From positions 1-35,777 of the IMG/VR virus record IMGVR_UViG_3300008255_000273: a stretch of DNA of 35,777 bases. One strand, written 5' to 3'. The stretch comes from a virus. Its lineage: Duplodnaviria; Caudoviricetes. This document shows, in pieces, positions 9,571 through 35,777 of the stretch. A program made the position numbers and the translations under genes. The notes beneath the pieces are model-generated. The model saw nothing but the letters and a program-made list of their open reading frames with translations. It was not told the origin of the DNA and made no database searches. Position 1 is the first letter of the stretch. The number at the start of each line of letters is the position of its first letter.

Positions 9571-9572
9571 TC

Positions 9573-16500: not shown

Positions 16501-16597
16501 TATTTATAAACCTTTTGTTTGTGTGAAGAAATAATTTAGATATATATGGTGTATTACACAAATCTTTATATACTTGTACTGTTTAATATATGGTAAA

Positions 16598-17947
16598 ATG
16601 ATAAAAATTATTCCTTATTTAGAAAAATTAGAAATAACATCTTCAACGTTGGAAAAGCAAAACATTCTTCAAGAACTGTTGCAAGTTGAGGGAGCTAGAG
16701 AAGTGTTGGAGTTAGTATATAATAGTGAGACTTACAACTTGTCTACCCGTAGCTTTGAAAATATGTTTGGTAGTATAGGGGAACTTTCAGACCCTGGACT
16801 TCTTGTGGCTGGTAAAGTTAATGGACAGTTTGAGTGTTCTTGGAAACATCTTGTAACTAGAATCATTCCCTCGGTTAAGCAAGAGAGTGGAAATCTTTTG
16901 TTACAGAACACCAAACGGGCCTTAGAGCTTCTTAAACCTCTCCACGCAAAGTGGGTTACTAGAGTACTAAATAAAGATTTACGTGTAGGGGTGCAAGTTA
17001 CACTCGTTAATAAAGTGCTTTCTAAAATGGAACTCCCTATAATATATGTTCATGATGTACAACTGGCAGAGAAGATAGACGATATTACCTCATGGGACAC
17101 CTTTCCTATAGGAGTTGGTACTAAGTATGATGGAATGCGTTGTGAAGTTGAGAAAAAAGGAGAATTTGTTAAGCTAACTTCTAGACAGGGAGAAAACATT
17201 GCTTCATACCTTCCAGAGATTGTTGAACATTTCAAAACATTCGATGGAGATTTTATTATTGACGGAGAAGTAATGGCTAAGGATTTTAATACCTTACAAA
17301 AAAGAATAGGTAGAAAAGCAGAAAACATAACTACTATCGAAGGGTTATATTTTAGGGTGTTCGATATTCTTGAATATGCAGGAAACGATTATACTACTGC
17401 TACACAACTGGAAAGAACAGAGAGTTTAAGACTATTGTTTCCTGAAACTGAAATGTTCAAACATGAAGTATTTTGGATAGTAACTAATAAAGAACAGTTA
17501 CTAAAAATATGGAATGAACACATGGACAACAAAGAAGAAGGAATAATGATTAAACTACTAGACAAACCTTACAACAGAGGAAGTAGGAAGAACTGGTTTA
17601 AAGTTAAAAAATATGTTGAAAACACCTTCGAGGTTACTGGTTGGGATTATGGGAGTGGGAGATTCTCTAAAACTGTGGGAAAGATTCATGTTAAAGACAT
17701 CTCTGGAACTGTTACCAGTTCAGTAGGAACGGGGTTAACTGATGACATGAGAAACTACTTATTACAACTTGCGGGGAGTGAGGAGCTCATTGGAAGACTT
17801 GTAGAAGTAGGTTACAATGAGGTGTCCAAAGATGCGAGAGGAAACAAGAGTTTAAGACACCCTCGTTTCTTGAAGTTTAGAGACGACATTTCCCAAGCTG
17901 ATAACCTGGGGAGTCCTGAGGGTAACGGTTTAATGAAATGGCTATAG
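16598..17947 (+). CDS. lig: ATP-dependent DNA ligase
   Basis: KYDGMR, IIDGEV, FRVFDIL, EGIMIK, WFKVK, VGTG, SLRHPRF. ATG 16598 lies downstream of the TATA at 16565. Confidence 0.95.
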   Translation: MIKIIPYLEKLEITSSTLEKQNILQELLQVEGAREVLELVYNSETYNLSTRSFENMFGSIGELSDPGLLVAGKVNGQFECSWKHLVTRIIPSVKQESGNLLLQNTKRALELLKPLHAKWVTRVLNKDLRVGVQVTLVNKVLSKMELPIIYVHDVQLAEKIDDITSWDTFPIGVGTKYDGMRCEVEKKGEFVKLTSRQGENIASYLPEIVEHFKTFDGDFIIDGEVMAKDFNTLQKRIGRKAENITTIEGLYFRVFDILEYAGNDYTTATQLERTESLRLLFPETEMFKHEVFWIVTNKEQLLKIWNEHMDNKEEGIMIKLLDKPYNRGSRKNWFKVKKYVENTFEVTGWDYGSGRFSKTVGKIHVKDISGTVTSSVGTGLTDDMRNYLLQLAGSEELIGRLVEVGYNEVSKDARGNKSLRHPRFLKFRDDISQADNLGSPEGNGLMKWL

Positions 17948-18777: not shown

Positions 18778-18864
18778 TATTATATACTACAGTATATAAA
18801 TGTTTATATATTAGTAGTGTTTAATAATAGTAGAAATGAGAAACATTTCATTAGGTGATACAAA

Positions 18865-20049: not shown

Positions 20050-20119
20050 ACGAGACAGTATTATTAATCACAGGAATAATATTCTTCGGAATGTGGATCC
20101 TAACAAACCAGAGGAAAAA

Positions 20120-20482: not shown

Positions 20483-20493
20483 GTGCTATAAAA

Positions 20494-20898
20494 ATGGAAA
20501 AAACATGCCCGCAATGTGGAAAACATGCATCAACAGTTTCCCAGGTAAAGAAACAGTTTGGAATGCGTTGGATTAATGGACAAGAAAAACCTCAGTCATA
20601 CTGTAAAGAGTGTATGAAAGAATATCGTAAGGAAAATAAAGTAACAACTAATCCTAAAGCACATGAAGTACAGCTACCATTCGATTTTGATGTTGAGGAA
20701 GATGAAGTTCCTGATACTGAAAAGCTACATTCTGTAAAGGATTTTCATGGTCACTTTAAAATTGTACCTGATGAAGAAAGTCAAGAAGATGTAACTGATT
20801 TGCTCCATATCTCTTTACAAGAAATGGAAAAAATAATTGCTGACGCAAAACGTTTAAGACTTGCAGGAACAATAATGCTTGGAATTAAAAAAATTTAA
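20494..20898 (+). CDS. Zn-finger hypothetical protein
   Basis: CPQC...FG.R...PQSYCKEC; internal QLPFDF. Confidence 0.6.
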   Translation: MEKTCPQCGKHASTVSQVKKQFGMRWINGQEKPQSYCKECMKEYRKENKVTTNPKAHEVQLPFDFDVEEDEVPDTEKLHSVKDFHGHFKIVPDEESQEDVTDLLHISLQEMEKIIADAKRLRLAGTIMLGIKKI

Positions 20899-20919
20899 TT
20901 CCCTTTTCTTTTATATACT

Positions 20920-20959
20920 ACATCACAATAATGTTTATAAAGTTTAAAGTTTTAATAAT
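20920..20959 (+). promoter_or_regulatory. ACATCACAA-box promoter
   Basis: ACATCACAA-TAATG-TTTATAAA-N10-TTAATAAT. Confidence 0.7.
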
Positions 20960-20976
20960 AGTACAGGTGGTACATA

Positions 20977-22170: not shown

Positions 22171-22356
22171 AATGAATTGTCAAAATTGTGGTCTTACGAT
22201 GAAAACTCGTATTGGAAAGTATGTTACAGTAAATCAGTGTCCTAACTCTAGACACCGTGAGGTATTGGAGTTTGATGAAATGTTTTTAAACCAAAAAGTT
22301 TAAATAGTATTTACATTTATTTTTAATAGTTTCCGAACTATTTTGGAGGTACAAAA

Positions 22357-23502
22357 ATGAAAGATATAAAATCTATGAGTAAAGAACAGTACATCGCCTG
22401 GCGTGCAGAGAAAGTTGACATGGATGTAGAAACAGTTGCAAAAATGTGGGAAGAGTTTGAATCAGAAGCTAAAGAGATTGGACTTACTGATACTGATACT
22501 TTTGTTAAGAAAAGATTCAGTCAAGCATTTATTAAAAAAGATAAAGGATTTGGTAAATCACCAACTGTAGAAGTTGAGGTTATTCTTATTGGAATGAAAG
22601 AATCAGATTATGGTGCAGCAAACCAAATCAAAGAGGTTCTTAAAATTATTACTAACGAAGACGGAACTTTAAAAGAAAAATCTGTATTGGAAGCTGCTAG
22701 AAACCAAGGATATATTAATGAAAACATCGAACCTTTATTCCACTATGAGAACTCAAAAAACAGAAAAAATGGAACTGTCATTGACTTAAAGAAAGAAACT
22801 CAATGTGAGTTTACAGTTGTAGGTAAGCGTTTGGATAAACCAGATGAGTTTACAAAAGGAACACTGAGTATAGCAAAACATAAATTAAGTGGTATGCCTG
22901 AATTTGGAACTGTTTACAAAACAGAATTAACAGTAAGTAGTAAAAGTGATAAAGATAAAATTATTCTCTTTGGAGATGACCGAACAGTTTTCAAAAATGG
23001 AACAATTTTAAAACAAGAGCAAATGGACAGTTTGATTTCTAACTTCTTTGGAAACATTATGTTTAGTATGTCCGATCTTAAAGATGTAGCTGTAAACTAC
23101 CCTGACCCTAATGTGGAGAAGTATGATAAATATGTAATAGTTAAGGCGTGTGTAGCTGATGTGAATTTAACAAGAGAGGGGATTGGAAACAAACTACTAC
23201 TAACTGATGGTTTTGATGAAGATGCTTTCTGTGATACTTGGGTTCCAGAAAATTTTAATATTAATTTCAACACTAATGCTCAGGATATCTGGGTGTATGG
23301 GGTAATAGGGTTTGATGAAAGAAACAGTATGCCTGTAATTAATGTTTATGGATTATATGTTCCAGAAGTTTACAGACTAAAAGAACAACCAAAACCAATT
23401 TCTCCAGAGACTGTTGAAACTGTTGAGACTCCTTCGGTAGAAGAAAAGAAAGAAGAGGTTACTCCCTCCGTTAAACCCCAAACTGGAGGGTTTACTTTTT
23501 AG
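22357..23502 (+). CDS. Putative multi-OB-fold ssDNA-binding protein
   Basis: Beta-rich sequence, first large gene of the replication operon, flexible acidic tail ending GGFTF. Inferred from context only. Confidence 0.4.
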   Translation: MKDIKSMSKEQYIAWRAEKVDMDVETVAKMWEEFESEAKEIGLTDTDTFVKKRFSQAFIKKDKGFGKSPTVEVEVILIGMKESDYGAANQIKEVLKIITNEDGTLKEKSVLEAARNQGYINENIEPLFHYENSKNRKNGTVIDLKKETQCEFTVVGKRLDKPDEFTKGTLSIAKHKLSGMPEFGTVYKTELTVSSKSDKDKIILFGDDRTVFKNGTILKQEQMDSLISNFFGNIMFSMSDLKDVAVNYPDPNVEKYDKYVIVKACVADVNLTREGIGNKLLLTDGFDEDAFCDTWVPENFNINFNTNAQDIWVYGVIGFDERNSMPVINVYGLYVPEVYRLKEQPKPISPETVETVETPSVEEKKEEVTPSVKPQTGGFTF

Positions 23503-23512
23503 GTGAAATAAA

Positions 23513-24394
23513 ATGGCAGGATTTAGTTTAGATACTACTCCTCCAAGTTCTCAACCAGCAACCTTATCGGTTGAGACAGAGGAGTTTGACTTAGAGAAAA
23601 TTAAAAAGTTTTGGCTTGAAGAAAACATAATTCAAGAAAAACTGGTTGCTTTAGTTTATGGACAAGATGGTACCTGTAAGTCTGGGTTAGTCGCTGAATA
23701 TTTAACAGATGAAGATATTAAAGCGGGAAAGAAAATGTTAATCATTGACTTGGATGGTGGATTCGAAGTATTACTCCCTAAATACCATAAGGAACGTTGT
23801 GAAAAAGCAGGAAAAAAACTTAGTGATGTATTCATTGTTAAGAATCCTTTAATTCTAACGAATGGGGGAGAAATCGATTATAAGTCAACATACAATAGAA
23901 TTAACGAAGCAGTGTTTTTAGCTAAGAATTTACATAAAGAACTAAATTTAAAAGCTATTGTTTTCGATGGACTTACTACGGCTTTAAACTACGCAGAAAA
24001 CATTATGCGTATTGAAAAAAACCTTACTATTGATGGTGGAGCTAACATTGCCTTTTGGAAAATTAGAAATAAAAGATTTTTAAACCCACTTGAACAAATA
24101 AAGTCTTTGCCTATTAGTAGTTTTTTAATAGGACACGAAAACTTTATTTTGAATGAACTTGATGGAGATAAAAATAGTAGTGTAATGGTTAAAACTAGTG
24201 CTATGGTTCATCAAAAAGTAAGAATGTCTAGAACAGTAAACAAAGCTACAGGAACAGTTGTGTTCAAAGCTACAGTAGATAAAAGCAAAAACAATGTAAG
24301 AGCAGAAGGTAATGAGTATAACGTCATTGTATTAAATAAAAATAATGATGAATATGAATTAAAAACTTCTAATCTATTCAAAGACTTATTATAA
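23513..24394 (+). CDS. AAA_24/Sak4-like P-loop ATPase (recombination)
   Basis: LVYGQDGTCKS, IIDLDGG, IVFDGLT, LIGH. Confidence 0.75.
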   Translation: MAGFSLDTTPPSSQPATLSVETEEFDLEKIKKFWLEENIIQEKLVALVYGQDGTCKSGLVAEYLTDEDIKAGKKMLIIDLDGGFEVLLPKYHKERCEKAGKKLSDVFIVKNPLILTNGGEIDYKSTYNRINEAVFLAKNLHKELNLKAIVFDGLTTALNYAENIMRIEKNLTIDGGANIAFWKIRNKRFLNPLEQIKSLPISSFLIGHENFILNELDGDKNSSVMVKTSAMVHQKVRMSRTVNKATGTVVFKATVDKSKNNVRAEGNEYNVIVLNKNNDEYELKTSNLFKDLL

Positions 24395-24448
24395 ATCAAA
24401 AGGTTTATATATGAGTACTTTTTATTTTTAACTAATAAAGGTATAAAG

Positions 24449-24700
24449 ATGACAGTTAAAAGAAGTATGAAAACCACGGTAACCGTTACGTTTGAAACGG
24501 ATACTCACAAAATCAGTTTCAGCGAAGAAAAGTTAGATGACTTGGAAAACGCTCATTCTGACCTGTTGAAAAAACTACACCATGACTTAAAGTTAAAACC
24601 AAACTTAGAGTTAGAACGACCTGAGTGGAGAACTAAATCTCAAGAAGAAATTTTTGAGGAAATTACAGGGCAAAAGTTATTAAAGGAATCTGAGGAATAA
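24449..24700 (+). CDS. Hypothetical protein
   Basis: 83-aa ORF after a BRE/TATA at about 24396-24411. Confidence 0.6.
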   Translation: MTVKRSMKTTVTVTFETDTHKISFSEEKLDDLENAHSDLLKKLHHDLKLKPNLELERPEWRTKSQEEIFEEITGQKLLKESEE

Positions 24701-24702
24701 AA

Positions 24703-25458
24703 ATGGAATCAAAAAATATTGTAGAATTTGTTAAACAAATAAGTTTAGGTGGTCAGGTAGAAAAATTATATTTAGAACCTTGTCCAGAAGGAACACGAGC
24801 TAGCATTAAAAATAGTACTCATACTATCTTTTTGGTAGGAATTCTTAGTGGGTTACAAATTAAAGAATCATTATGTATTAAAAACTCCAAAGATTTTATT
24901 AGTGCGCTTTCATGGGTTGGTGGAGATATTATTTTAGAAAAGGTAGAAAACAGATTATTTATTTCTAGTACTAAAAATGGAAAAGTACGTAGTCAAGAGA
25001 TTGGTTTAATTAGTGAAGAATACGCTAAGGAAAATTATCTTGAAAAAATGCCAGCTTTAGAATTTGAAGGTAGCACAGAAGTGGAAAGTGCTGACTTAAA
25101 AGATATGGCTTCTGCTTGGTCTAAACTAGGTGAGAGACATATTAATATCACAGTTAAAGATAATAAGTTAACCTTCAAAGCTGCTGGAGATACTGACAAT
25201 ACAAAAATTGAACTTCCTGTGGAATACTACGATTGTGAAGGGTACTTTGGAGCTCCGTTTGTAGACGTAGTTAACGTTTTAAAAACAGAAAAAGTAAACT
25301 TATTCATGAGTAAAGAAAAGGCATTATATCCTTTAAAAATTGTTTCTCGGACTGATGAGAGTTTAATTTCATATATTGTGGCACCTAAAGAGATTGAAAA
25401 AGAACCTATCGAGGAGCCTAAGGTTGAAACAGAACCTGTATCAGAGGATTTCAAATAG
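24703..25458 (+). CDS. pcna: PCNA-like sliding clamp
   Basis: 251 aa with a two-domain pattern; C-terminal YPLKI...ISYIVAPK; directly upstream of RFC. Confidence 0.8.
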   Translation: MESKNIVEFVKQISLGGQVEKLYLEPCPEGTRASIKNSTHTIFLVGILSGLQIKESLCIKNSKDFISALSWVGGDIILEKVENRLFISSTKNGKVRSQEIGLISEEYAKENYLEKMPALEFEGSTEVESADLKDMASAWSKLGERHINITVKDNKLTFKAAGDTDNTKIELPVEYYDCEGYFGAPFVDVVNVLKTEKVNLFMSKEKALYPLKIVSRTDESLISYIVAPKEIEKEPIEEPKVETEPVSEDFK

Positions 25459-25468
25459 AATTTATATT

Positions 25469-25594
25469 TCTTTGTATCACCAAAGACGTGTCTCGGAAAG
25501 ACTTTAAATTTGCCCGGGTTGAGATAGCTGTGGTAGCTGATGTGAACACTCCCTAAAATAACTTAAAAAACCTGACAGGAGGGAAAGACCCCAC
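25469..25594 (+). ncRNA. Candidate structured RNA between PCNA and RFC
   Basis: GC-richer intergenic segment with several hairpins, complementary loops (TATCAC / GTGGT), and GGAAAGAC twice. Confidence 0.35.
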
Positions 25595-25613
25595 TTATTT
25601 TTATAGAGGTATC

Positions 25614-26519
25614 ATGATGAAAAATTATATATTTACTGAGAAGCATAGACCTAAGACCTACGACGATGTAATAGGCATGCCAGAAAAGTTAAGGCTACAG
25701 CTTGATAACTTAACTGAAAAGATGTGCATTTTATTAACAGGCACTCCAGGAACGGGAAAGACAACTACTTCAAAAATCTTAGTTAATAAACACAAAGAAA
25801 ACGCAATCACACTAAACGCTTCTGATGAACGAGGGATAGATGTTGTCCGTAATCGTATTAAAAACTTCGCAACAAATGCTAGTATTGATGGGGGAGTGAG
25901 AATAATTAACCTGGAGGAGTTTGACGAAATGACGGCAAATGCTCAAAATGCTCTTCGTAACTTAATGGAAGAGATTCCTAATGTTGTTTGGATTCTTACG
26001 GGAAACTATGAAGCAAACATTGTGGACGCTATTAAAAACAGATGTGACCATTATAGGTTTATTGCTCCAGATAAAAATGAAGTTCATACACTATTAAATA
26101 AAATTATTGATTCTGAGAAAATTAAAATAAATAATGTTGAGATAATTGAAAAAATTTTAAATAATCATTATCCTAGTATTAGAGGAATGGTTAAGGAATT
26201 ACAGAGATTAACTTTCCTAGGGAGAGAAGTTACTTTAAAAGATGTTGAGAGTTCAAAAGAAGATTTACAAAAAATTTATACTAGCTTTTCAAGTAAAAAC
26301 TTTAGTCAAACAAGACAACTGGCTATTGATAGTGCTATAGACTATCCTACAATTATTATATACTTACATGATAAAATACTAAAAGATGAGAAAGTAAATC
26401 CTGCTAATAAATTAGAGGCAATCTTAATTATGGGAGATAGTTTACGTCATATTAAAGGAGTTCCTAGTAAAGAAATAGAATTTGAAACTATGATTTATAA
26501 TTGTTTTAAGGTGATGTAA
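25614..26519 (+). CDS. rfcS: Replication factor C small subunit (clamp loader ATPase)
   Basis: EKHRPKT..DVIG, GTPGTGKTT, LNASDERGIDVVR, EEFDEMT..AQNALR, NRC. Confidence 0.95.
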   Translation: MMKNYIFTEKHRPKTYDDVIGMPEKLRLQLDNLTEKMCILLTGTPGTGKTTTSKILVNKHKENAITLNASDERGIDVVRNRIKNFATNASIDGGVRIINLEEFDEMTANAQNALRNLMEEIPNVVWILTGNYEANIVDAIKNRCDHYRFIAPDKNEVHTLLNKIIDSEKIKINNVEIIEKILNNHYPSIRGMVKELQRLTFLGREVTLKDVESSKEDLQKIYTSFSSKNFSQTRQLAIDSAIDYPTIIIYLHDKILKDEKVNPANKLEAILIMGDSLRHIKGVPSKEIEFETMIYNCFKVM

Positions 26520-26720
26520 AAGAATATATTTAAAAATGAGTAATAATAGATTTTTATCTCCCTGAATTAGATTCTTATTTGGAAGTAAAAGGATATTGAA
26601 AAAAAGATGTTTATTTGTTTGTAATGAGGTATAAAAACAAATAGAACCAAAAAATTTAATAATAGATGATAGTAAAAACATTAATAATATAAATTTAAAC
26701 CAAATCAAAGAGGTAGTAGT
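26520..26720 (+). pseudogene. Remnant of a PD-(D/E)XK endonuclease
   Basis: 26540-26596 reads VIIDFYLPELDSYLEVKGY, flanked by in-frame stops. Confidence 0.55.
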
Positions 26721-27206
26721 ATGATAGATATATGGTCAGTTTGGAATATGTTACACGCAAAAAATTCAAACTATCTTTTAAACTTTGAAGATGGTTGGTT
26801 ATTTCCTTATATTAGTCGACTTAGGGGTCGGGAGAAGCACCTCCGTTATATTAATTCTGTGAATAGAATGGTTTTTGGGTGTCCCCCAAAATTACTGCAC
26901 TCAATACTATTCTATTCGATTGACCCTGACCCCTGGGTCTCTTCTCCCAAAGCTACCAAGTTTGATGAGAAAAAACTAGAGGTTGTAAAACCTTATATTA
27001 AAAGTCTTTTTGATTGGAGTGAGAGGGATTTCAATGAACACAAAAAACTTATTGACAATTTTCTTAAAGATGAAAATTTTTTAAAAAAATTAAATGAACA
27101 CGTTAGTTTAGAAAAAAAGGAGGCGAAAGAACTTGGACTTGAATTTGTTAAATATAAACCAAAACCAAAACCAAAAGAAAGTAGTATCAGTCTCACTAGC
27201 TTCTAA
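26721..27206 (+). CDS. Putative second clamp-loader subunit (gp62/RFC-L C-terminal analogue)
   Basis: Synteny after RFC; helical; K/P-rich tail ending in PIP-like SISLTSF. Confidence 0.45.
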   Translation: MIDIWSVWNMLHAKNSNYLLNFEDGWLFPYISRLRGREKHLRYINSVNRMVFGCPPKLLHSILFYSIDPDPWVSSPKATKFDEKKLEVVKPYIKSLFDWSERDFNEHKKLIDNFLKDENFLKKLNEHVSLEKKEAKELGLEFVKYKPKPKPKESSISLTSF

Positions 27207-27357
27207 GTGTAAATGTTGTGGAAGACCTTTAAAAGCACACAGCAGTCAAGTTTTAGGTTTTGGACTAACTTGTGCAATTAAAGAAGGTTTAATTAAACCT
27301 AAAGTTAAACCTCACAAAGAAGACCATAGTATTGACTTATATACTCTAGTACAATAA
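27133..27357 (+). CDS. DUF6011-like Zn-finger protein
   Basis: CKCCGRPL...SQVLGFGLTCA; start uncertain. Confidence 0.6.
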   Translation: MDLNLLNINQNQNQKKVVSVSLASKCKCCGRPLKAHSSQVLGFGLTCAIKEGLIKPKVKPHKEDHSIDLYTLVQ

Positions 27358-27389
27358 TCTTTATATACTAGTAGTGTTTAATAAAGTGT

Positions 27390-27572
27390 ATGGTAAAAGA
27401 AATTAAACTACGGTGTAATAAAGAAGAATTTCTTGCGTATGAAGAAGTTCGGTTGTCTGGAGTAACAAATATGTTTGCTATTAAAACAGTAGAACGTTTA
27501 ACTGGTTTGGATCAATTAAAGATTTCAAATATTATGACTTACTACGGATTATATGCAGAAAAATATTTGTAA
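27390..27572 (+). CDS. DUF5049-like small protein
   Basis: EVRLSGVTNMF pattern; leaderless after the TATA at 27360. Confidence 0.6.
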   Translation: MVKEIKLRCNKEEFLAYEEVRLSGVTNMFAIKTVERLTGLDQLKISNIMTYYGLYAEKYL

Positions 27573-27614
27573 ATAAATAGATTTATATAGTACAACTTTT
27601 TAATTTATATTAAA

Positions 27615-27668
27615 TAGTTGATAGGAGCTCACAACCCTTAACCAACTAAAATAAAAAAATTGTGAGGT
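27615..27668 (+). promoter_or_regulatory. Candidate riboswitch-like H-type pseudoknot in the queD 5' UTR
   Basis: P1 TAGTTG(27615-20)/CAACTA(27643-48); linker AAATAAAAAAA; P2 CTCACAA(27628-34)/TTGTGAG(27660-66), overlapping the GAGGT RBS; TATA at 27582. Confidence 0.55.
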
Positions 27669-27676
27669 ATTACAAA

Positions 27677-28171
27677 GTGTTAATAACAAAAAGAATTGGA
27701 ATAGACATGGGCCACCGGGTGCCTAACCATCAAAGCAAGTGTCGTCATTTTCACGGACACAGATATTCTATTGAAGTGGGAGTTGATGACAAAATTATTT
27801 CTACACCAGGAACGCCTGACGAAGGTATGGTGATTGATTTTGGTGACCTAAAACAAATTATGATGGAAGAAATAGATGCTAAATTTGACCATGGATTCTG
27901 TATGTGGAAAAATGATATGTATGCACCAGTTTTTCAAGAACTAAAAGATGGTTATAACTTTGAGTTTCAAGATGGGAGAGAGTGGAGAACCGAAGTTACA
28001 GATAAACCTTTTCAAAAAATTATCTTTGTTGATTTTATTCCAACTGCAGAAAACTTAGCTAAACATTGGTATGAACTAATTAAACCTAAGTTAGCAGAAA
28101 GAAAAATTAAAATTAAACATGTAAAGGTGTGGGAAACTCCAACAAGTACAGCAAAGTATGAGGAAGAATAA
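27677..28171 (+). CDS. queD: 6-carboxy-5,6,7,8-tetrahydropterin synthase
   Basis: GHRV..H.SKCRHFHGHRY, IDFGDLK, PTAENLA, VWETP. GTG 27677 follows GAGGT. Confidence 0.92.
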   Translation: MLITKRIGIDMGHRVPNHQSKCRHFHGHRYSIEVGVDDKIISTPGTPDEGMVIDFGDLKQIMMEEIDAKFDHGFCMWKNDMYAPVFQELKDGYNFEFQDGREWRTEVTDKPFQKIIFVDFIPTAENLAKHWYELIKPKLAERKIKIKHVKVWETPTSTAKYEEE

Positions 28172-28172
28172 A

Positions 28173-28919
28173 ATGGAAAAGCTAAATGTAAGTGAAACTT
28201 TTTATTCTCTACAAGGAGAGGGGGAGTATTGTGGATATCCAGCAGTGTTTTTTAGATTACAGAACTGCAATTTATTCTGTGGAATGCCTAAAGGTGATTT
28301 AACAAAACCATGTGATGGTTGTAAATGGGTTTGTGATACTATTGCTGTTTGGCAGAAAGGGAACTCAAAAACTTTTGATGAAATATTAGACGAGTGGGAC
28401 TCTTCCGGAATTACAAAAAATTTAGAAGACGGTGCTCACTTAGTAATTACTGGTGGAGAGCCTTTACTACAGCAAGATGCTATTGTTATTTTTATTATGT
28501 ACTTTATAGAGTTCAAAGGGTTTGTTCCTTTTATTGAAGTTGAAACAAACGGAACTATTAAACCAAGTGATGAAATGTTCACTCTTGTTGATAGATTTAA
28601 TGTGTCTGCAAAACTCTCTAATAGTGGTAACCCAAAACCAATGCGTTACAAAGAAGACGCCTTAGAATGGCATACAAATAATAACACCAGCATATTTAAG
28701 TTTGTAACTTTAGACGAAGAGGATACTGACGAAATTTTTGAAGATTTTATTAATAAGTTCAGTATCCCTAAAGATAAAATCTGGTTAATGCCAGGAGCTT
28801 ACGACCGAGAAATGCTTTGGAAGAACGGGCAGACAATTGCTGAACTTTGTAAAAAGTATGGTTTCAAAATGACAAGCAGAATGCACGTTGAGATTTGGGA
28901 CAAATTGACGGGAGTTTAG
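28173..28919 (+). CDS. queE: 7-carboxy-7-deazaguanine synthase (radical SAM)
   Basis: ETFYSLQGEG, RLQNCNLFC...WVCDT, ITGGEPLLQ, VETNG, SAKL, RMH. Confidence 0.95.
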   Translation: MEKLNVSETFYSLQGEGEYCGYPAVFFRLQNCNLFCGMPKGDLTKPCDGCKWVCDTIAVWQKGNSKTFDEILDEWDSSGITKNLEDGAHLVITGGEPLLQQDAIVIFIMYFIEFKGFVPFIEVETNGTIKPSDEMFTLVDRFNVSAKLSNSGNPKPMRYKEDALEWHTNNNTSIFKFVTLDEEDTDEIFEDFINKFSIPKDKIWLMPGAYDREMLWKNGQTIAELCKKYGFKMTSRMHVEIWDKLTGV

Positions 28920-28924
28920 AGAAA

Positions 28925-29374
28925 ATGGATTTCATAATAGGAACAAAAACCGACAGCATTAGTTCTGTTCAGGCAGAGAACGGTCAGAATAAAAAATTTA
29001 TTTCCTGGATAGAGTTTGAACAATATATGGAGGAGTTAGCAACAACTCTAATTAAAAAAACTAACATAGATTACTATAAAAATATCTACGGTTTACCTAG
29101 AGGAGGCTTAATTGTAGCAGTTTGGCTAAGTCACAGATTAAATAAACCTCTTATTTTAAGTGAATCTGATATCGAGAAAGATACTCTAATTGTTGATGAT
29201 ATTGCTGATAGTGGAGAAACCATGTTTGCATTATTAACTAGAGTTAAAAAAGTAACAAGACCAACGATAGTGTGTATTGTTCATAAAGAACACACTTCTT
29301 TTATTAAACCTGAGTTTGCAGCAATTACTACAAGGTCAGATGATTGGATTGTATTCCCATGGGAGGTAAAATAA
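28925..29374 (+). CDS. Type I purine phosphoribosyltransferase (Gpt-like)
   Basis: GLPRGG, PRPP loop LIVDDIADSGET, WIVFPWE. Confidence 0.9.
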   Translation: MDFIIGTKTDSISSVQAENGQNKKFISWIEFEQYMEELATTLIKKTNIDYYKNIYGLPRGGLIVAVWLSHRLNKPLILSESDIEKDTLIVDDIADSGETMFALLTRVKKVTRPTIVCIVHKEHTSFIKPEFAAITTRSDDWIVFPWEVK

Positions 29375-29375
29375 A

Positions 29376-30044
29376 ATGAGTTTAGACATAACAAAAGTAG
29401 ATGGAATTACAGGTTATAAGGTTAATCAGTATTTATTAAAGAAAGGAGTGGAAACTCCTAAGTCTGGTTTAAGATTTAGTAAGAAGGAACAAATTGAAGT
29501 GATTAAAAATAATTTCACCCAAATAATGCAGGTTATGGGTTTAGATTTAACAGATGACAGTCTAATTGAAACTCCCAAACGTGTTGCAAAAATGTTTGTC
29601 AATGAAATCTTTTGGGGTTTAGACTATCAAAACTTTCCTAAGATTACAGTTGTAGATAACAAAATGAAATATGACGAGATGGTTTTTGAAAAGAACATTA
29701 ATGTCATGAGTGATTGTGAGCACCATTTTAGAACAATTTTTGGAAAGGCCCACGTAGCTTATATTCCAAATAAAAAAGTTCTAGGACTAAGCAAACTAAA
29801 TCGTATAGTAGAGTTTTTTTCAAGAAGACCTCAAATTCAAGAACGACTAACTGAACAAATATTTTATACTCTTGAATATTTATTAGGAACTAAAAATATT
29901 GCTGTAGTTATTGAAGCAGAGCATATGTGTGTAAAGCAAAGGGGAGTTGAGGATGTTGGAAGTTCTACAGTAACCAGTAAATTAGGAGGCTCTTTCAAGA
30001 AACGTCCTGAGCTTCGTGCTGAATTTATGGGGTTAACAAAATGA
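29376..30044 (+). CDS. folE: GTP cyclohydrolase I
   Basis: ETPKRVAKM, CEHH, GLSKLNRIV, QIQERLT, HMCVKQRG. Confidence 0.97.
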   Translation: MSLDITKVDGITGYKVNQYLLKKGVETPKSGLRFSKKEQIEVIKNNFTQIMQVMGLDLTDDSLIETPKRVAKMFVNEIFWGLDYQNFPKITVVDNKMKYDEMVFEKNINVMSDCEHHFRTIFGKAHVAYIPNKKVLGLSKLNRIVEFFSRRPQIQERLTEQIFYTLEYLLGTKNIAVVIEAEHMCVKQRGVEDVGSSTVTSKLGGSFKKRPELRAEFMGLTK

Positions 30045-30724
30045 AACCAGTAAGAACAAATATTCATGGACTAGACGTAATTATGAGACACGATTATATT
30101 GGAGAAATGAATAACTTACAGAAATATATAAAATTTTCTGTAGAATTTATTGATAATTTTATTAAAAAAAATAAACATGATATTAAAAGTGTTTTATGTG
30201 TAGGTTGTGGAGATGGGTATGAAGTAAAATTATTTAAAGACTTAGGGTATATCTGTGTAGGTATAGATGCTTTTCCTGTCGAGGACTACGGTTTAGTTCA
30301 TGGAATAGATATATTCAAAGCCAGTTTTAGTAACTTTAGTGACTTGACAGGAAAAAACTCTTGGGATTTAGTTTTTGTTAACCACTCTCATGAACACACT
30401 CCTAACGCTTATGGACTAACTCACGAGATATCAAAAGTATTAAAGAAAGGTGGATTAGTATTTGACGACGTTCCTTATGCTAACGACGATTGGGGTTGGA
30501 GTATTTCTCATTCAACCACTCATTTTAGTCTATTTACTCCTCCCTTCATGCGAACAATGTTTGAGAGATATGGTTTTGAAACTAAATATATAGACCTACA
30601 TGAAATGATACCAGTAAGAAACCCTAGATGTAGAGAGATTATTTATATTGGACAGTACACTGGAGAAGTTCCAGAAGAGTACAAAGGTTTTATTGGAACA
30701 ATGGAGGGATATAACAATGAATAA
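30041..30724 (+). CDS. Class I SAM-dependent methyltransferase
   Basis: VLCVGCGDG, GIDA, WDLVFVNHSHEH, LKKGG; start and stop overlap folE and queC. Confidence 0.85.
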   Translation: MKPVRTNIHGLDVIMRHDYIGEMNNLQKYIKFSVEFIDNFIKKNKHDIKSVLCVGCGDGYEVKLFKDLGYICVGIDAFPVEDYGLVHGIDIFKASFSNFSDLTGKNSWDLVFVNHSHEHTPNAYGLTHEISKVLKKGGLVFDDVPYANDDWGWSISHSTTHFSLFTPPFMRTMFERYGFETKYIDLHEMIPVRNPRCREIIYIGQYTGEVPEEYKGFIGTMEGYNNE

Positions 30725-31508
30725 ACACAAATCAATGGAAAAGAGATTAGTTATTATGTTAAGCGGAGGACTAGACTCTAGTGTAGCTTATCATTACGCT
30801 TTAAATAAAGGATTTAATAAAGACGAAATTGTTTGTATTTGGTTTGATTTAAACCAGCCATATAATACTAAAGAAAAAGAAAGTTTAGATAAAATTGGAA
30901 TTCCTTACGAAACAATTAAACTAGATTTGATTCAAGAGAAATTTAACAATATTCCTACCAAAGACCACCCTAATCAAATTATTCCTGGGCGTAATTTAAT
31001 CATGGCTACAATTGCTGCAAGTTTCGGAGAACGAATTTGGATGATGGCGTTAGACGGAGAGACACACATGAACACGATAGAGCGCGATAAATCAACTAAG
31101 TTCTTTCAAGACACTACTAACTTGCTTACATATATCTTCAACGTGAAGCGAGATATAACTGTTCTGGAGAGTCCTTTTATGAACATGAGTAAAACAGACA
31201 TTGTTAAGTGGGCTATTGACCATGGAGTATCCGAAGAATTTTTAAAGAATACTTCTACCTGCTATGACGAGAGTTTACACAACTGTGGAGAATGTGGAAC
31301 TTGTTTTAAACGTTGGATTTCATTCAAGAACAATGGAGTGGAGGAAGAGTACACAAAAAATCCGTGGGAATCAGACGATGCTAAAAAACTTATTGCTAAC
31401 TATAAAGAAGCATTTATAAACAATGACTTCTCACATTATACAAAGAAGAGAATCGAGGAAACTTTTGAAGCTCTTAAAAAACAAGGTGTAATGAATGACA
31501 ATAATTAA
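30717..31508 (+). CDS. queC: QueC-family ATP pyrophosphatase (atypical 7-cyano-7-deazaguanine synthase)
   Basis: PP-loop SGGLDS, IPGRN, SPF...SKTDIV, TCY....CGECGTCFKR; YPDCR replaced by ERDKS. ATG 30717 follows GGAGGG. Confidence 0.85.
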   Translation: MNKHKSMEKRLVIMLSGGLDSSVAYHYALNKGFNKDEIVCIWFDLNQPYNTKEKESLDKIGIPYETIKLDLIQEKFNNIPTKDHPNQIIPGRNLIMATIAASFGERIWMMALDGETHMNTIERDKSTKFFQDTTNLLTYIFNVKRDITVLESPFMNMSKTDIVKWAIDHGVSEEFLKNTSTCYDESLHNCGECGTCFKRWISFKNNGVEEEYTKNPWESDDAKKLIANYKEAFINNDFSHYTKKRIEETFEALKKQGVMNDNN

Positions 31509-32529
31509 ATATGCTTCGGCAGGTTGTGAATCCAGATATTTACAACCTAATTTAAATTTTGGTGCTTTCCTATCTAAGTGTGTCTTAATTAATGCTACTG
31601 CGTTAAACAATAAAAGAGATAGTCCTTTACTTAGTAAAATCAACGAAATGAAAAAAAATGGGTTTATTATTCTTGTTGATAGTGGTGGATTTCAATTAGC
31701 TACAGGAGCGTGTAAAGATTTAAATGTAGGGGAAATTATAGAAATTCAAAATTTGTATGGAGATATAGGTATGATGTTAGATGTTCCTCCTATCAAGGGA
31801 GAACTTAACTGGAAATACTTTAGTGAGTGTTTAGAGGAAACTAGAATAAATTTACACAAAGCTAAAAATTATAAAAAGAATTTTAAATATTACTTCGTGC
31901 TTCAAGGTGAAACTTTTGAAACATTAGATACTTGGTATAATGAACTTAACCATATAGATACTTTTGATGGGGTTTCGTTAAAAGGGTTAACTTTAGAAAA
32001 AATGTTGCTTGCAGCAATGTACGCTATTGATAAAACAGATTATAAAAATTTTCACTTCTTAGGAGTAAGTTCAACTAATAGACAGATTTTAATTGATTAT
32101 TTGTTTAAAGGAATGGACGACAGCTATTTTGTGACTTATGATTCAACGACTCCTGTGATGTTAGGTAAGAGTAAAATGATGAAGTTTCCTTTCTCAGACG
32201 TGACATTATCTTTTTCAAAAGTAAAAAATTTCGATGATTTTAAAGATGTTCTTCAAGTTGAAAATGATTTTAACTCAATTATCTCCCTTAATGTATTAAA
32301 TATTAATTTACAGCAATTGTTTATTAAAAATATGGTTCATGACCGAAAGTTATTAGAGGATGCATTTTCAAAATATAAACTAAAACCTTACTTTGATATA
32401 ATAGATTATTTTTTAGCTAATGGAAGAGATATGAAGAAAACTATAATAAAGTATAGTTCCTATTTTGAAGATAAGATTCCTTCTGGAAACACTGGAGTCA
32501 AACAAGCATCACTGTTAGGGGAGTTTTAA
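31495..32529 (+). CDS. dpdA: TGT-superfamily guanine transglycosylase, DpdA-like
   Basis: VDSGGFQ, MLDVPP, VLQG, FHFLG, YDST; no C-terminal Cys Zn site. Context points to a DNA substrate. Confidence 0.75.
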   Translation: MTIIKYASAGCESRYLQPNLNFGAFLSKCVLINATALNNKRDSPLLSKINEMKKNGFIILVDSGGFQLATGACKDLNVGEIIEIQNLYGDIGMMLDVPPIKGELNWKYFSECLEETRINLHKAKNYKKNFKYYFVLQGETFETLDTWYNELNHIDTFDGVSLKGLTLEKMLLAAMYAIDKTDYKNFHFLGVSSTNRQILIDYLFKGMDDSYFVTYDSTTPVMLGKSKMMKFPFSDVTLSFSKVKNFDDFKDVLQVENDFNSIISLNVLNINLQQLFIKNMVHDRKLLEDAFSKYKLKPYFDIIDYFLANGRDMKKTIIKYSSYFEDKIPSGNTGVKQASLLGEF

Positions 32530-34422
32530 ATGGAACCTCTAGAAAGAATAAAATCAATAAAAAAGATAGCAATCCAAGACGAAGATACATTAAATTGTTT
32601 TATTTCTGAACTTCGCTCCTCTGAATATGTAGCGACAGATACTGAGACAAGTGGTCTTGAATACGTTGGAATGGTTATGGCTGGTTGTTCCTTTTACATG
32701 GGTGGAGATATTGCTTTTTACTTTCCTGTGAAACATAATACTGGAGAAAAACAACTCCCCTTAGATTTATGTATTAAAACTTTAAAGGAGGAGTTGAAAG
32801 ATAAAAAACTAATTCTCCATAACTTTGTTTTTGATGCTATAGTTTATAGAAAGAATAACTTTGATATCACTAACCATAAATATTTTGATACTATGGTAGC
32901 GGCTCATTTGATAGATAATAGACAGTCTAAAAAATTGAAGGAACTGGCAAAAAGTTATTTTGGGTATGAACAAACCACTTTCGACATGATAGCTAAACTT
33001 GTAGACCACGATTCGACAGAAGTTCGTATTGATATTATGACTCCTTACGCTTGTGATGATGCTATTGTAACTTATATGCTTTTTGAGGTATTCAAACTAC
33101 AACTTAAAGAGTGGGAGTTGGAACACTTATTTTATAATATAGAAATGCCATGGTTGCCTGCTTTAATGAGTGTTACAGAAAATGGAGTCAAGTTTGATAT
33201 GGATAAATTAATGTCATATGTTAAACCTATTAATGAGGAAATGGAACATTATAGACGAGAGATATTCAAGTTTAACAAAAGTGAACAAATGACTTTATTA
33301 GGTGGAACGGATAATAGTTTTAATATAGACAGTAATACTGAGCTAGCTTTATTTCTTTACAAACGTTTAAAGCTTCCTATACTTTCAAGAACAAAAGATG
33401 GAGCGGCTCAAACAAATTATGATACTCTTATACAACTTAAAGACCAACACGTTGTAATCGAACATATCCTATGTTATAAGAAACTTGCAAAGTTAAGGAA
33501 TTCCTATGTTAAAAGTTTTCCTAAAAGAATTAGTAAAGACGGATATTGGCATTTAAGTTACAACAACACAGTAACAAAAACAGGACGACTTTCCGGGGAT
33601 AGTCAGCAGTTGCCTAACGTTGACAAGCTTAGTGGTTGGGATAAAGAGGTTACTTTAAGGTATAATATTAGAGACTGTTTAACTGTCGAAGATGATGAGA
33701 CCATGATTGCTGTGGATTATAAAGCACAAGAATTAAGAGTTGCCGCATTCGTAGGAAATGATAAAGGTCTTAAAGAAGTTTTTGAGAAGAAACAAGACAT
33801 GCACTTAAAGACAGCTAACTCCTCTTATGAATTAGGTTTAACAGAGGAACAGATTAAAGACGGTTCAGAAGAACATAAAAAAGCAAAGGAAGAATATTAT
33901 GGTCAAAGAGACAAGGGAAAAACCACAAACTTTCAAACACTATATGGTTGCAGTCCTTGGGGGTTATCTGAAACTTTAAAAGTTTCTGAGGACGAGGCAA
34001 AAAAGTTAATTGAAGGTTTCCGAAAAGCTTATGCAGGAATTATTACTGAACAGAAAAAAACTTTCGAGTTTGCTTTAAAAAATGGATATGCTAGAACACT
34101 ATTTGGACGTATTGAAAGGTTTGACAAACCTAAAAGCAAAAAAGAGGAGGGGGAGTTAGAAAGAGAATCAGGTAACTTAATTATTCAAGGTTTTTGTGCA
34201 GATGTAACTAGAGTTGTAGGAGCCAAAATTTGGCAACGGTTCAGAGATACAGATTTAAAAATTCAGATGTTTGTACACGATGAATTTGTACTCAAATGTA
34301 AAACAGTTAATTTAGATAAATACATTCCAATAATAAAAGAAATTATGGAAAATTCGGTTGTAAGTGACCCAAAACTTTTGGTTGATATAGGAACAGGAAA
34401 AAATTATGGTGAGGCAAAATAA
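32530..34422 (+). CDS. polA: Family A DNA polymerase with 3'-5' exonuclease, no 5' nuclease
   Basis: Exo motifs DTETSG, HN..FD, YACDDA; polymerase motifs TGRLS, DYKAQELRV (A), RDKGKTTNF..LYG (B), VHDE (C). Confidence 0.95.
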   Translation: MEPLERIKSIKKIAIQDEDTLNCFISELRSSEYVATDTETSGLEYVGMVMAGCSFYMGGDIAFYFPVKHNTGEKQLPLDLCIKTLKEELKDKKLILHNFVFDAIVYRKNNFDITNHKYFDTMVAAHLIDNRQSKKLKELAKSYFGYEQTTFDMIAKLVDHDSTEVRIDIMTPYACDDAIVTYMLFEVFKLQLKEWELEHLFYNIEMPWLPALMSVTENGVKFDMDKLMSYVKPINEEMEHYRREIFKFNKSEQMTLLGGTDNSFNIDSNTELALFLYKRLKLPILSRTKDGAAQTNYDTLIQLKDQHVVIEHILCYKKLAKLRNSYVKSFPKRISKDGYWHLSYNNTVTKTGRLSGDSQQLPNVDKLSGWDKEVTLRYNIRDCLTVEDDETMIAVDYKAQELRVAAFVGNDKGLKEVFEKKQDMHLKTANSSYELGLTEEQIKDGSEEHKKAKEEYYGQRDKGKTTNFQTLYGCSPWGLSETLKVSEDEAKKLIEGFRKAYAGIITEQKKTFEFALKNGYARTLFGRIERFDKPKSKKEEGELERESGNLIIQGFCADVTRVVGAKIWQRFRDTDLKIQMFVHDEFVLKCKTVNLDKYIPIIKEIMENSVVSDPKLLVDIGTGKNYGEAK

Positions 34423-34757
34423 TGACAGGTAAAAAGTTTGATTCAGGAAATAAAGTTAGGTGGGATTGTGTTCCTTGGGAAATCATTGAAGGAGTAGCAA
34501 AGGCAATGACCTATGGTGCAGTTAAATATAATGAAAACCCTGATAACCCTAATTGGATAAAGGTTGAGAATGGGAAACACCGTTATTTTGCAGCTATGAT
34601 GAGACACTTTACGGAAGACCTTAAAGGAGATGTTTTTGATAAAGACGCAAAGGAATCTTTTGATATGGATATAGAGCATTTAGATATGTTTTTATTTAAT
34701 GCTGTTGCGTATGTTTATTTTAAGAGGAATGAAAGAACCAAAAAGTTTATAAAGTAA
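34422..34757 (+). CDS. DUF5664 dATP/dGTP diphosphohydrolase-like protein
   Basis: GKKFDSG.K.RWD.VP...A.AMTYGA.KY...NW...RY.AA..RH. Confidence 0.8.
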   Translation: MTGKKFDSGNKVRWDCVPWEIIEGVAKAMTYGAVKYNENPDNPNWIKVENGKHRYFAAMMRHFTEDLKGDVFDKDAKESFDMDIEHLDMFLFNAVAYVYFKRNERTKKFIK

Positions 34758-34779
34758 AATTTTAATACTTATACTAAAA

Positions 34780-34962
34780 ATGAACGATTATAAATTATAT
34801 GAAGAGTCTCGGAAAACAGTAGAGTTTTTAATTTGTGATAAGGAAGAAGAGATTAAAAAATTGGAGTCCGAAATATTTTATTTGAAGAAAACCAAAAGAA
34901 TGCTTTCAGAAAATGAATATAAATGTATAACAGAAAACAAAAAGAGTGATTTAATTGGATAA
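34780..34962 (+). CDS. Small coiled-coil hypothetical protein
   Basis: 60-aa ORF after the BRE/TATA CCAAAAAG TTTATAAA at about 34738-34753. Confidence 0.5.
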   Translation: MNDYKLYEESRKTVEFLICDKEEEIKKLESEIFYLKKTKRMLSENEYKCITENKKSDLIG

Positions 34963-35638
34963 CACACCTAAACTAAGCAAGTCAGCAATAGGAACTTATG
35001 ACAGTTGCCCTCATCAATATAAGTTAAGATATATTATGGGAATGCAACCTGCACCTTCCCCTATTATGCAGAGAGGTACTGAAATACATGACCTATGTGA
35101 CACATTCTTTGACGGTGTAAACACAATGGAAGGAGCTGTTAATAAATTACTACAGAGTGAACTAGCATTGAAATACAAAGACCAAATGAAGAATTTTATA
35201 TCTTTTATTAAGCACATTAGTAATGGAAAATTTCGCACTCCTTTAATGAAAGAAAAAAAGTTTTTCAACGAAGAGTGGAATTTTACTTTTATTTCGGATG
35301 CTATTTATGAAGATGACCAAGGAAACTTGTTATTACTCGATTATAAAACAGGAAAGACAAGAGGAGTAAGTCATCATAGATTTGAGTTGGCTGTCTATGT
35401 TTTCTTTACTGAGATATTATTAAATCGAAAAATTAAATTTTGGGGTATTCTATTTTTAGACGAACCTGATTTTAGTAAAGCTTTTGATTACGAGGAAGTT
35501 ATTCCTAAGGAAATTGAAAAAGCCAAGTTAAAAATTAAAAATACAAGAATGAAAATAAGAATGGAACAATTCCCAAAGAAGCCAAAGTACGGTTGCGAAT
35601 GGTGTGGGTTTTATGGTAATGGGTGTGAGGGTAAATAA
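34955..35638 (+). CDS. Cas4/RecB-like PD-(D/E)XK exonuclease with Fe-S cysteines
   Basis: LSKS...Y..CP, RGTEIH, SDAI, DYKTG, ELAVY, CEWCGF...C. Confidence 0.88.
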   Translation: MDNTPKLSKSAIGTYDSCPHQYKLRYIMGMQPAPSPIMQRGTEIHDLCDTFFDGVNTMEGAVNKLLQSELALKYKDQMKNFISFIKHISNGKFRTPLMKEKKFFNEEWNFTFISDAIYEDDQGNLLLLDYKTGKTRGVSHHRFELAVYVFFTEILLNRKIKFWGILFLDEPDFSKAFDYEEVIPKEIEKAKLKIKNTRMKIRMEQFPKKPKYGCEWCGFYGNGCEGK

Positions 35639-35777
35639 ATGGACTTAGAAAATTTTACAAAAAAGAATGACAAATTTGTGAGTGACGTGGAAACTGGTGG
35701 GTTCGACCCAAATATAAATGGATTGTGTAGTATAGCAATTAAAGCTTTTAATGAAGATAAAAGATTAAATATATTTA
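35639..35777 (+). CDS. DEDDh (DnaQ-like) 3'-5' exonuclease, partial
   Basis: MDLENFTKKNDKFVSDVETGGFDPNINGLCSIA contains ExoI DVETGG; truncated by the window end. Confidence 0.7.
   Translation, partial: MDLENFTKKNDKFVSDVETGGFDPNINGLCSIAIKAFNEDKRLNIF

Follow-up and report, generated by a model that had tools for sequence, protein, structure and literature searches.

Which DNA polymerase copies a viral genome that encodes its own PCNA-type clamp and clamp loader? The question is raised by IMG/VR record IMGVR_UViG_3300008255_000273, a linear virus fragment of 35,777 bp and about 32% G+C that was analysed whole (the window), and in particular by its interval 22357-34422, which encodes a stand-alone family A DNA polymerase (PolA) together with a PCNA-type sliding clamp and a replication factor C small subunit (RFC-S). 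Reviews describe archaeal viruses as using family B polymerases (PolB) and family A as largely confined to bacteriophages (PMC11348598, PMC3201878, PMC4889955). We judge it fairly probable that PolA took the place of PolB in situ and that it likely acts as a PCNA-tethered replicase through a QxTL[LF]G motif at the tip of its thumb. The features on which this argument turns are the following.

24703..25458, plus strand: PCNA-type two-domain sliding clamp, with profile matches to archaeal PCNA
25614..26519, plus strand: RFC-S of archaeal type by profile, an AAA+ protein with a NASD motif
26721..27206, plus strand: 161-aa protein directly 3' of RFC-S, with a tail resembling a PCNA-interacting peptide (PIP)
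32530..34422, plus strand: stand-alone family A DNA polymerase of 630 aa, with 3'-5' exonuclease and polymerase domains and without a 5'-3' exonuclease
33283..33306, plus strand: thumb-tip insertion motif EQMTLLGG (PolA residues 252-259), predicted to bind the clamp; a gap in Klenow, just before FNLSS
34955..35638, plus strand: PD-(D/E)XK exonuclease (PF12705, E 2e-13), the right-hand marker of the polymerase slot

The polymerase, the clamp and the loader

The polymerase is Klenow-like, as the first-pass annotation had proposed: it matches PF00476 (E 5.8e-73; 246.5 bits against a cut-off of 34.3) and PF01612 (E 2.7e-25), and its closest solved structure is the Klenow fragment (E 2.2e-62, residues 13-629). 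Exo I, II and III and motifs A, B and C are all intact; D396, R460/K464/F468/Y472 and H583-D584-E585 are present in the polymerase domain, and the exonuclease residues D37/E39, D102 and Y173/D177 are invariant among six aligned sequences. Three other identities were considered and rejected. Contaminating bacterial Pol I (PolA1) has an N-terminal 5'-3' exonuclease that is missing here, its model gives 351.7 bits against a cut-off of 720, and the protein also falls outside the bacterial Pol I clade in our tree. T7-type PolA has a tyrosine at the O-helix position; here Phe468 aligns with the Klenow phenylalanine, the insert has only 11 aa, and there is no thioredoxin-binding domain. The NCBIfam models for DpoZ reach 120 and 31 bits against cut-offs of 500 and 350, and no PurZ was found among the window open reading frames (ORFs) scanned with Pfam and PHROG.

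Taken singly, the clamp scores weakly (Sulfolobus PCNA2, E 0.012; NCBIfam sliding clamp PRK01115, E 1.8e-5, under the cut-off), and its identity becomes clear by profile, with E 5e-7 to Thermococcus/Pyrococcus PCNA from four sequences and E 2e-22 to Pyrococcus PCNA from 149 sequences (positions 6-232 of 234). An AF2 model of the PCNA monomer from three sequences was of low confidence (pLDDT 42.7) and was not used. A three-sequence profile of the loader matches archaeal RFC-S at E 9e-59, better than eukaryotic RFC and T4 gp44 (E 2.5e-40), and the protein matches NCBIfam PRK00440 at E 9e-46, under the equivalog cut-off (156 vs 303). The first-pass descriptions of a PCNA-like clamp and an archaeal-type RFC are thus upheld. 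Scans of viral contigs with the single PolA protein, with the single PCNA protein and with a primase alignment returned no matches.

No RFC large subunit with an AAA+ domain was encountered; RFC-S is followed only by the 161-aa protein, which lacks an ATPase domain. A small gene lies directly 3' of RFC-S in the window and in contigs L083, L168, L189 and L084, and shortly 3' of it in L161. The tails of these small loader-type proteins read SISLTSF, ASLFDF, ASIFDFGG and GLSRWA. Position, size and tail suggest that the 161-aa protein is a non-ATPase (gp62-like) subunit of the clamp loader, and by analogy it may work like T4 gp62.

The combination of PolA, PCNA and RFC is real and not an artefact of assembly. 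Positions 20000-35777 are spanned by a single 38.5-kb contig with flat depth and four differences, which runs about 14 kb beyond the window; its run is a possible source of the record. Each of four sequencing runs mapped to this region covered all 30 of its 30 bins; X19-X21, whose shares were small, were left aside. The independent contigs L083 and L084 again show RFC linked to PolA, which, with the spanning contig, rules out a chimera. The sequence occurs in aquifer and cold-spring metagenomes, as an uncultured groundwater virus. The completeness of its genome is estimated at about 25%, and the overlapping contig L082 (99.9% identity over 2,922 bp) lengthens it by 3.6 kb, to about 39 kb in all; a search with the right end of L082 gave no matching viral contig. 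L082 contributes a DEDDh exonuclease and, after the PD-(D/E)XK exonuclease, an archaeal-type AEP primase, the gene for which the first-pass annotation had proposed a search beyond the window.

The polymerase slot in related viruses

The most direct comparison is with a PolB virus, G001 (locus L161), in which the order is helicase, RPA, ATPase, PCNA, RFC-S, small subunit, Que genes, TGT-like gene, PolB, PD-(D/E)XK exonuclease, Hjc and AEP primase (the Que genes were read from the sequences, and only the TGT-like one was scanned). The window extended by L082 has the same gene order, with PolA where G001 has PolB (E 3e-50); no PolA was found in the 26 kb of G001. In the cultured archaeal virus PhiF1, the equivalent slot holds an annotated UDG-DnaE, again followed by a PD-(D/E)XK gene, an AEP primase and an ERCC4 gene. 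The PD-(D/E)XK slot order is common to L083, L084, G001 and PhiF1. In L083, RFC-S and the small subunit are linked to PolA; L084 has the module again, and its PolA, of the same clade, is fused to a UDG and interrupted by an intein (the intein was read from the sequence). Window and L082, G001 and PhiF1 therefore hold polymerases of different families between the same flanks in related viruses, which is what an in situ swap leaves behind; the viruses compared are distant, with 24-45% protein identity.

We also asked how often the two families occur together. Among 50 viral records, Pfam found PolB in 17, PolA in two and both in none. The 50 comprise 49 of the 59 loci found with RFC-S and ATPase alignments, plus G001; the ten loci left out are mostly duplicates, plus L166, which shows PolB. 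Most of the records are fragments, and only three are at least 90% complete. Pfam overlooked a divergent PolB in G004, which a 12-sequence viral PolB profile run with filters off detected. With this positive control in hand, neither Pfam nor the profile found a PolB in the window, in agreement with the first-pass annotation, and none appeared in the roughly 39 kb obtained with L082. The profile likewise found none in L082, L083, L084 or the complete G013.

The two PolA records among the 50, G013 and G042, are separate cases: their polymerases fall outside the clade of the window PolA, and neither has the thumb insert. G013 is complete (90,469 bp, with terminal repeats) and pairs PolA with PCNA and RFC, with no PolB by Pfam or profile. 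Its gene set (L226-L230) comprises PCNA, RFC-S, a small following gene, a Prim-Pol/DnaB-like primase-helicase, a 5'-3' exonuclease and PolA; it is possibly a bacteriophage, because it has no TATA boxes. G042 (L215, 2683-7842) offers a third combination of PolA with PCNA and RFC, with a PCNA-like gene, RFC-S, a gp62-like gene (phrog_225, E 2.6e-7) and a UDG-PolA. The complete, 36,677-bp G004 (L231-L232) carries PCNA, RFC-S, a small loader subunit and its divergent PolB. A UDG is fused to DnaE in PhiF1 (L233, MK994522.1 53324-63514) and to the PolA of L084, P0007 and L215, so that UDG appears repeatedly on incoming polymerases, from two families.

The thumb-tip motif and the origin of the polymerase

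All six PolAs of the clade carry an 11-12-residue insert at the thumb's tip with QxTL[LF]G, and the segment from helix H to FN-x-x-S is 56-57 aa long, where almost every bacterial Pol I row has 45. The loops read QMTLLGG (twice), QRTLFGG, QKTLFGG, QQTLFGD and QQTLFGG; the motif is kept in six of six at 35-76% identity while its flanks vary. Alignment with Klenow places the insert at the thumb tip, at a site equal to H-H1, a helix naming that we take to apply to this alignment. The same pattern closes a second protein of the window.

32503..32526, plus strand: clamp-type motif QASLLGEF, following the Qx[ST]L[LF] pattern, at the C-terminus of the TGT/DpdA-like protein

Qx[ST]L[LF] occurs twice in the 10,048 aa of window ORFs, against 0.36 expected for a pattern that was chosen after the motif had been seen, and the two sites are the PolA thumb loop and this C-terminus. 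L084 also has two, in the PolA thumb loop and at the C-terminus of a methyltransferase; L161 has none, and the PolB of G001/L161 ends in QEVSLLEF. That one motif is shared by a polymerase thumb and the tails of two other proteins argues for a single shared pocket, and we predict that the thumb loop hooks PolA onto the viral PCNA.

The origin of the motif was approached through a PolA tree (a quick version of 38 rows, with insert columns removed). The six PolAs form a clade (SH-aLRT 97) that is sister (100) to 15 PolAs and lies outside bacterial Pol I. In 14 of the 15 sisters the thumb segment is 57-62 residues long and often contains QxDMF, QxTLF or the like; in the remaining one, L096, it has 48. 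Genes near the sisters include those for bacterial SSB, DnaB, a DnaG zinc finger and RecA (10 of the 14 proteins scanned gave matches), and neither PCNA nor RFC turned up in the sister loci. A bacteriophage PolA group with a 15-17-aa thumb-tip insert of QxDMF/QxTLF type (L001, L102, L105, L109, L111-L113, L117, L124, L126, L132, L143, L148, L150, L151 and L153) provides candidate users of the host beta clamp. The simplest reading would be that PolA was transferred from a bacteriophage lineage already fitted with a clamp motif. Because the rest of the module is archaeal in character, and given the magrovirus-like loci that combine RPA, the ATPase and PolB or TFB, we infer that the direction was from PolB to PolA. 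The gene following PolA likely arrived with it.

34422..34757, plus strand: dATP/dGTP diphosphohydrolase-like protein (PF18909, E 2e-18)

Homologues of this gene adjoin PolA in the phage loci L096/L097 and L002, and none was seen at the slot after the polymerase in G001.

The fork that we envisage would work as follows. A DUF3987/SF6 helicase would unwind the DNA, an RPA-like protein would cover the single strands, and the AEP primase would make primers. A viral RFC of four small subunits and the 161-aa subunit would load PCNA, on which PolA would dock through its thumb loop, extending with proofreading, and the ATP ligase would seal nicks. The TGT/DpdA-like enzyme could ride the same clamp through its C-terminal motif and mark new DNA with 7-deazaguanine. 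PolA likely came from a bacteriophage lineage in which the thumb insert was a beta-clamp motif beforehand, and this would make the polymerase swap easy.

Accompanying genes, host and alternatives

The remaining components of this scheme, and the modification genes that lie between loader and polymerase, are listed here.

14848..16500, minus strand: DUF3987/SF6 (MCM-related AAA+) helicase of 550 aa, the predicted replicative helicase
16574..17947, plus strand: ATP-dependent DNA ligase (PF01068, E 1e-30; phrog_114, E 2e-75)
22357..23502, plus strand: probable tandem OB-fold single-stranded DNA-binding protein (RPA-like) with an acidic disordered tail (AlphaFold model, pLDDT 80.6)
23513..24394, plus strand: Sak4/AAA_24-like P-loop ATPase of 293 aa, identified via homologues
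27662..32529, plus strand: QueD, QueE, phosphoribosyltransferase, FolE, S-adenosylmethionine (SAM) methyltransferase, QueC and TGT/DpdA-like transglycosylase (Pfam, PHROG)

The SSB-like protein of the first-pass annotation has no Pfam match; its model finds BRCA2, TEBP-alpha and Pyrococcus RPA in Foldseek (E 7e-6 to 2e-4) with template-modelling (TM) scores of just 0.17-0.28, and its top structural matches are all OB-fold DNA binders. Homologues occur in L084 and L161 and, weakly, as PhiF1 ORF61 (E 4e-4). A PDB sequence search gave nothing for the helicase, the RPA-like protein or the 161-aa protein. The MCM-like ATPase had been placed in the interval 22357-34422, where the ATPase is instead Sak4-like; an MCM-related helicase exists outside it. 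The 293-aa ATPase has no direct family match (Pfam, PHROG) and is not an MCM: it is 45% identical to the L161 protein, which matches AAA_24 (E 2e-7) and Sak4-like phrog_124 (E 4.5e-6), and is likely a single-strand annealing protein. Its identity is 45% to PolB virus G001/L161 against 27% to PolA virus L084. The helicase shares features with DUF3987 (0.96), a family classed as SF6 (PMC4889955), and its structure resembles MCM AAA+ domains (TM 0.50-0.53); without a match to PF00493 or any other Pfam family it was not accepted as a canonical MCM. A homologue with 26% identity heads the same module in L084. The ATP ligase is encoded as described earlier, again outside that interval; a TATA-like box lies 33 nt before the ATG at 16598, which is the likely true start.

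The 7-deazaguanine cluster fills about 5 kb of the interval, with the SAM methyltransferase between FolE and QueC. The TGT-like match is weak (Pfam, E 7e-5; TgtA model, E 1e-7, under the cut-off). Together these genes likely serve DNA modification at the fork.

Two further features bear on the host.

6403..8136, minus strand: terminase large subunit (phrog_5909, E 7e-8), a tailed-virus marker
24404..24411, plus strand: archaeal-type TATA box TTTATATA, upstream of the ORF83-PCNA unit

The terminase and a portal/MuF-like gene lie on the minus strand, and the replication genes mostly on the plus strand. Further TATA-like boxes lie at about 22299, 16565 and 27360, and in repeat families D1, D2 and D4. 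Of the 28 unit heads, 12 have TTTAWAWA within the region 25-60 nt upstream (shuffled sequences gave 1.5 on average and at most 5); elsewhere the counts are 3/8 in L161, 2/10 in G004, 0/32 in G013 and 0/42 in four bacteriophage loci. Five 53-nt intergenic repeats surround such a box (4371-4423, 16542-16594, 18780-18832, 20911-20963 and 27337-27389), several with the box 30-33 nt before an ATG, which suggests a shared promoter class with leaderless transcripts. The primase matches four of 50,697 phage records, all of them archaeal viruses (PhiF1 and haloarchaeal HCTV records), and in the same kind of search the G001 ATPase matches PhiF1 only. With terminase and portal, archaeal promoters and archaeal-virus replication proteins in one genome, the virus likely infects archaea.

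Other genes of the window include tRNA-Thr(TGT) and tRNA-Gly(TCC) (5745-5898, minus strand) and, at 4756-5268, 8309-10543, 18130-18570, 20093-20482 and 20977-22170 by Pfam, a cobalamin adenosyltransferase, a metallophosphoesterase, an NT5C-like nucleotidase, an RNA ligase, a pyrimidine-dimer glycosylase, a Pth2 peptidyl-tRNA hydrolase and a PcfJ-like protein. Downstream of the primase, L082 (4469-6565) encodes a GIY-YIG endonuclease and a Zeta-toxin-family kinase domain, and L084 (16562-21100) an ERCC4 nuclease and a tRNA nucleotidyltransferase/HD protein.

A number of observations weigh against a PCNA-tethered PolA that replaced PolB in an archaeal virus. The motif pattern was defined post hoc, and it is not a canonical PIP box, which has the consensus QxxIxxFF (PMC3201878): the glutamine and a hydrophobic residue are kept, the aromatic pair is absent, and the window has LL, not LF. 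It is nearer QxxLF and suits the bacterial beta-clamp pattern at least as well, and may therefore be inherited rather than used on PCNA. The insert is also not required for the combination of PolA, PCNA and RFC, because G013 and G042 lack it. In a PCNA+RFC tree, the window, L084, G001, G004 and L189 group together (93/93) without resolution inside; monophyly of the PolA carriers is neither rejected nor shown (p-AU 0.5), and the nearest outgroup, G013, has a different PolA, so that the direction of the swap is not proven. (A quick RFC tree was mostly unresolved.) Pfam, PHROG and PDB gave no match to the 161-aa protein, TTTAWAWA is not enriched in L084 (1/10), and two scans of GTDB genome contigs gave neither a host genome nor a provirus. 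Finally, about 75% of this virus genome lies outside the roughly 39 kb examined, and 22.8 of the 51.6 kb of the L084 contig were examined.

That last point leaves room for another replicase, either a PolB encoded in the portion not seen or the PolB or PolD of the host, with PolA confined to accessory gap filling or repair, perhaps riding on PCNA. Gap filling is the main task of bacterial Pol I (PMC12926913), some phages have a second, divergent PolA beside their main polymerase (Yutin 2024, PMC11348598), and the PolB that Pfam overlooked in G004 shows how such a gene may be missed. PolA nevertheless fills the PolB slot between the same neighbours, with its proofreading site intact and the 5'-3' exonuclease absent; no record among the 50 has both families, and the complete G013 has PolA alone with PCNA and RFC. 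We regard an accessory PolA as unlikely. Slightly less likely again is that PolA is the replicase and is not bound to PCNA by its motif, which would be a left-over of beta-clamp binding, with PCNA and RFC serving the ligase, nucleases, modification or transcription. The sister phage PolAs, with QxDMF/QxTLF at the same site and no viral clamp in the loci examined, fit this account, as do the insert-free polymerases of G013 and G042, and the UDG domains on the L084 and P0007 PolAs could make these enzymes processive by themselves, a hypothesis put forward for SPO1 (PMC3201878). A left-over motif is harder to square with QxTL[LF]G in all six members down to 35% identity amid variable flanks, with the same pattern ending the TGT-like protein and the L084 methyltransferase, and with a beta-clamp motif having no partner in an archaeal cell.

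Two further accounts we consider very improbable, each about as much as the other. PolA may have been selected for modified nucleotides, in the manner of DpoZ, jointly with the dGTP/dATP hydrolase and the genes of the deazaguanine cluster, an idea that is compatible with PCNA tethering and is prompted by the place of PolA between the Que/TGT cluster and the PF18909 hydrolase. The same cluster is, however, present in the PolB virus G001 and absent between RFC and PolA in the PolA contigs L083 and L084, and the DpoZ and PurZ results given above also speak against it. Alternatively, the virus would infect bacteria, the clamp and loader would be a T4-like module, and the motif would bind the host beta clamp. 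The bacteriophage ancestry of PolA, the pairing of PCNA and RFC with PolA in the TATA-free G013, and Shine-Dalgarno-like words before 33 of 57 genes (a count without a control set) point that way; the TATA boxes at 12 of 28 unit heads, the RPA-like SSB, AEP primase, archaeal-type RFC-S and Pth2, the primase and ATPase matches to archaeal viruses only, and Hjc in G001 point to archaea.

The proposal of the first-pass annotation, a PolA recruited to serve a PCNA/RFC replisome as its replicase, is thus partly borne out, by the slot swap with G001, the thumb motif, the adjacent primase and the complete G013. Its implied view that a PolA with a clamp is exceptional needs narrowing, in that PolA with a ring clamp and loader has been published for RSL1 and Ma-LMM01, where the clamp was proposed as a processivity factor (PMC3201878); those clamps are of the bacterial beta/gamma type in bacterial hosts, and the text available describes no PolA clamp motif. 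In Caudoviricetes, A, B and C polymerases replace one another with the neighbouring gene order unchanged (Yutin et al. 2024, PMC11348598); the swaps described there are in bacteriophages, archaeal viruses are said to encode family B, and the words 'clamp', 'PCNA' and 'processivity' do not occur in the portions of that text available. Earlier work already covers in situ swaps among the three families, the pairing of a beta clamp with PolA, and the QxxLF motif of PolA2. In actinobacterial PolA2/APEX, QxxLF is likewise predicted to bind the sliding clamp, but it sits in a dead exonuclease domain, the clamp is beta, and the role is accessory repair (PMC12926913); the window PolA has its motif at the thumb tip, an exonuclease that appears active, PCNA as the clamp and a likely replicase role. 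T7 gp5 likewise has a processivity module at the H-H1 thumb tip, but as a 76-aa domain that binds host thioredoxin rather than an 11-12-aa loop with a clamp-type motif, and grafting that domain at H-H1 confers processivity on Klenow (PMC11339088).

Among archaeal viruses, Aoguangviridae/magroviruses, HVTV-1/HCTV and DHTV-1/2 likewise encode PCNA, RFC, an SF6 helicase, AEP primase and ATP ligase (PMC10768690, PMC4889955, bioRxiv 2025.02.15.638363). The large archaeal tailed viruses share the placement of replication and morphogenesis genes on opposite strands, and the HCTV primase is similar to that of the window virus; they are described with a family B polymerase, whereas the window virus has family A, a DUF3987-type helicase instead of a canonical MCM, and a second loader subunit of just 161 aa. 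Methanobacterium virus PhiF1 (MK994522.1, ORF61-ORF54) has the RPA-like protein, Sak4-like ATPase (42% identical to the G001 protein), polymerase, PD-(D/E)XK gene and AEP primase in the same order and likewise a bacterial-type polymerase in an archaeal virus, but one annotated as family C, and unlike the window virus it showed no PCNA or RFC within the 26 kb examined. The accessible text of bioRxiv 2022.07.04.498658 describes PolB alone, and that of PMC8651126 holds nothing relevant on PolA, family A or PCNA. A full-text literature search, with most subscription papers and many supplements outside its reach, found neither an archaeal virus described as pairing PolA with PCNA nor any account of a clamp motif at the thumb tip.

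On balance we lean, by a small measure, towards the view that archaeal viruses naturally possess a family A replicase tethered by PCNA, with a bacteriophage beta-clamp thumb motif reused on PCNA and PolB replaced. Such a lineage would run counter to the family B rule for archaeal viruses, with its mechanism in view, and would offer a testable answer to the puzzle of in situ swapping, namely how an unrelated polymerase drops into a functioning replisome: given a short clamp motif that suits the pockets of beta and of PCNA alike, polymerases would be exchangeable between bacterial and archaeal systems. The Klenow-type enzyme, small, proofreading and supplied with its own clamp and a two-gene loader, would also be a compact system for studies of processivity and for long-range DNA synthesis. 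If the reading is true, the thumb tip is a general processivity socket, used by thioredoxin in T7, by the beta clamp in the sister phages and by PCNA here, and one archaeal-virus replisome scaffold runs on polymerases of family A, B or C.

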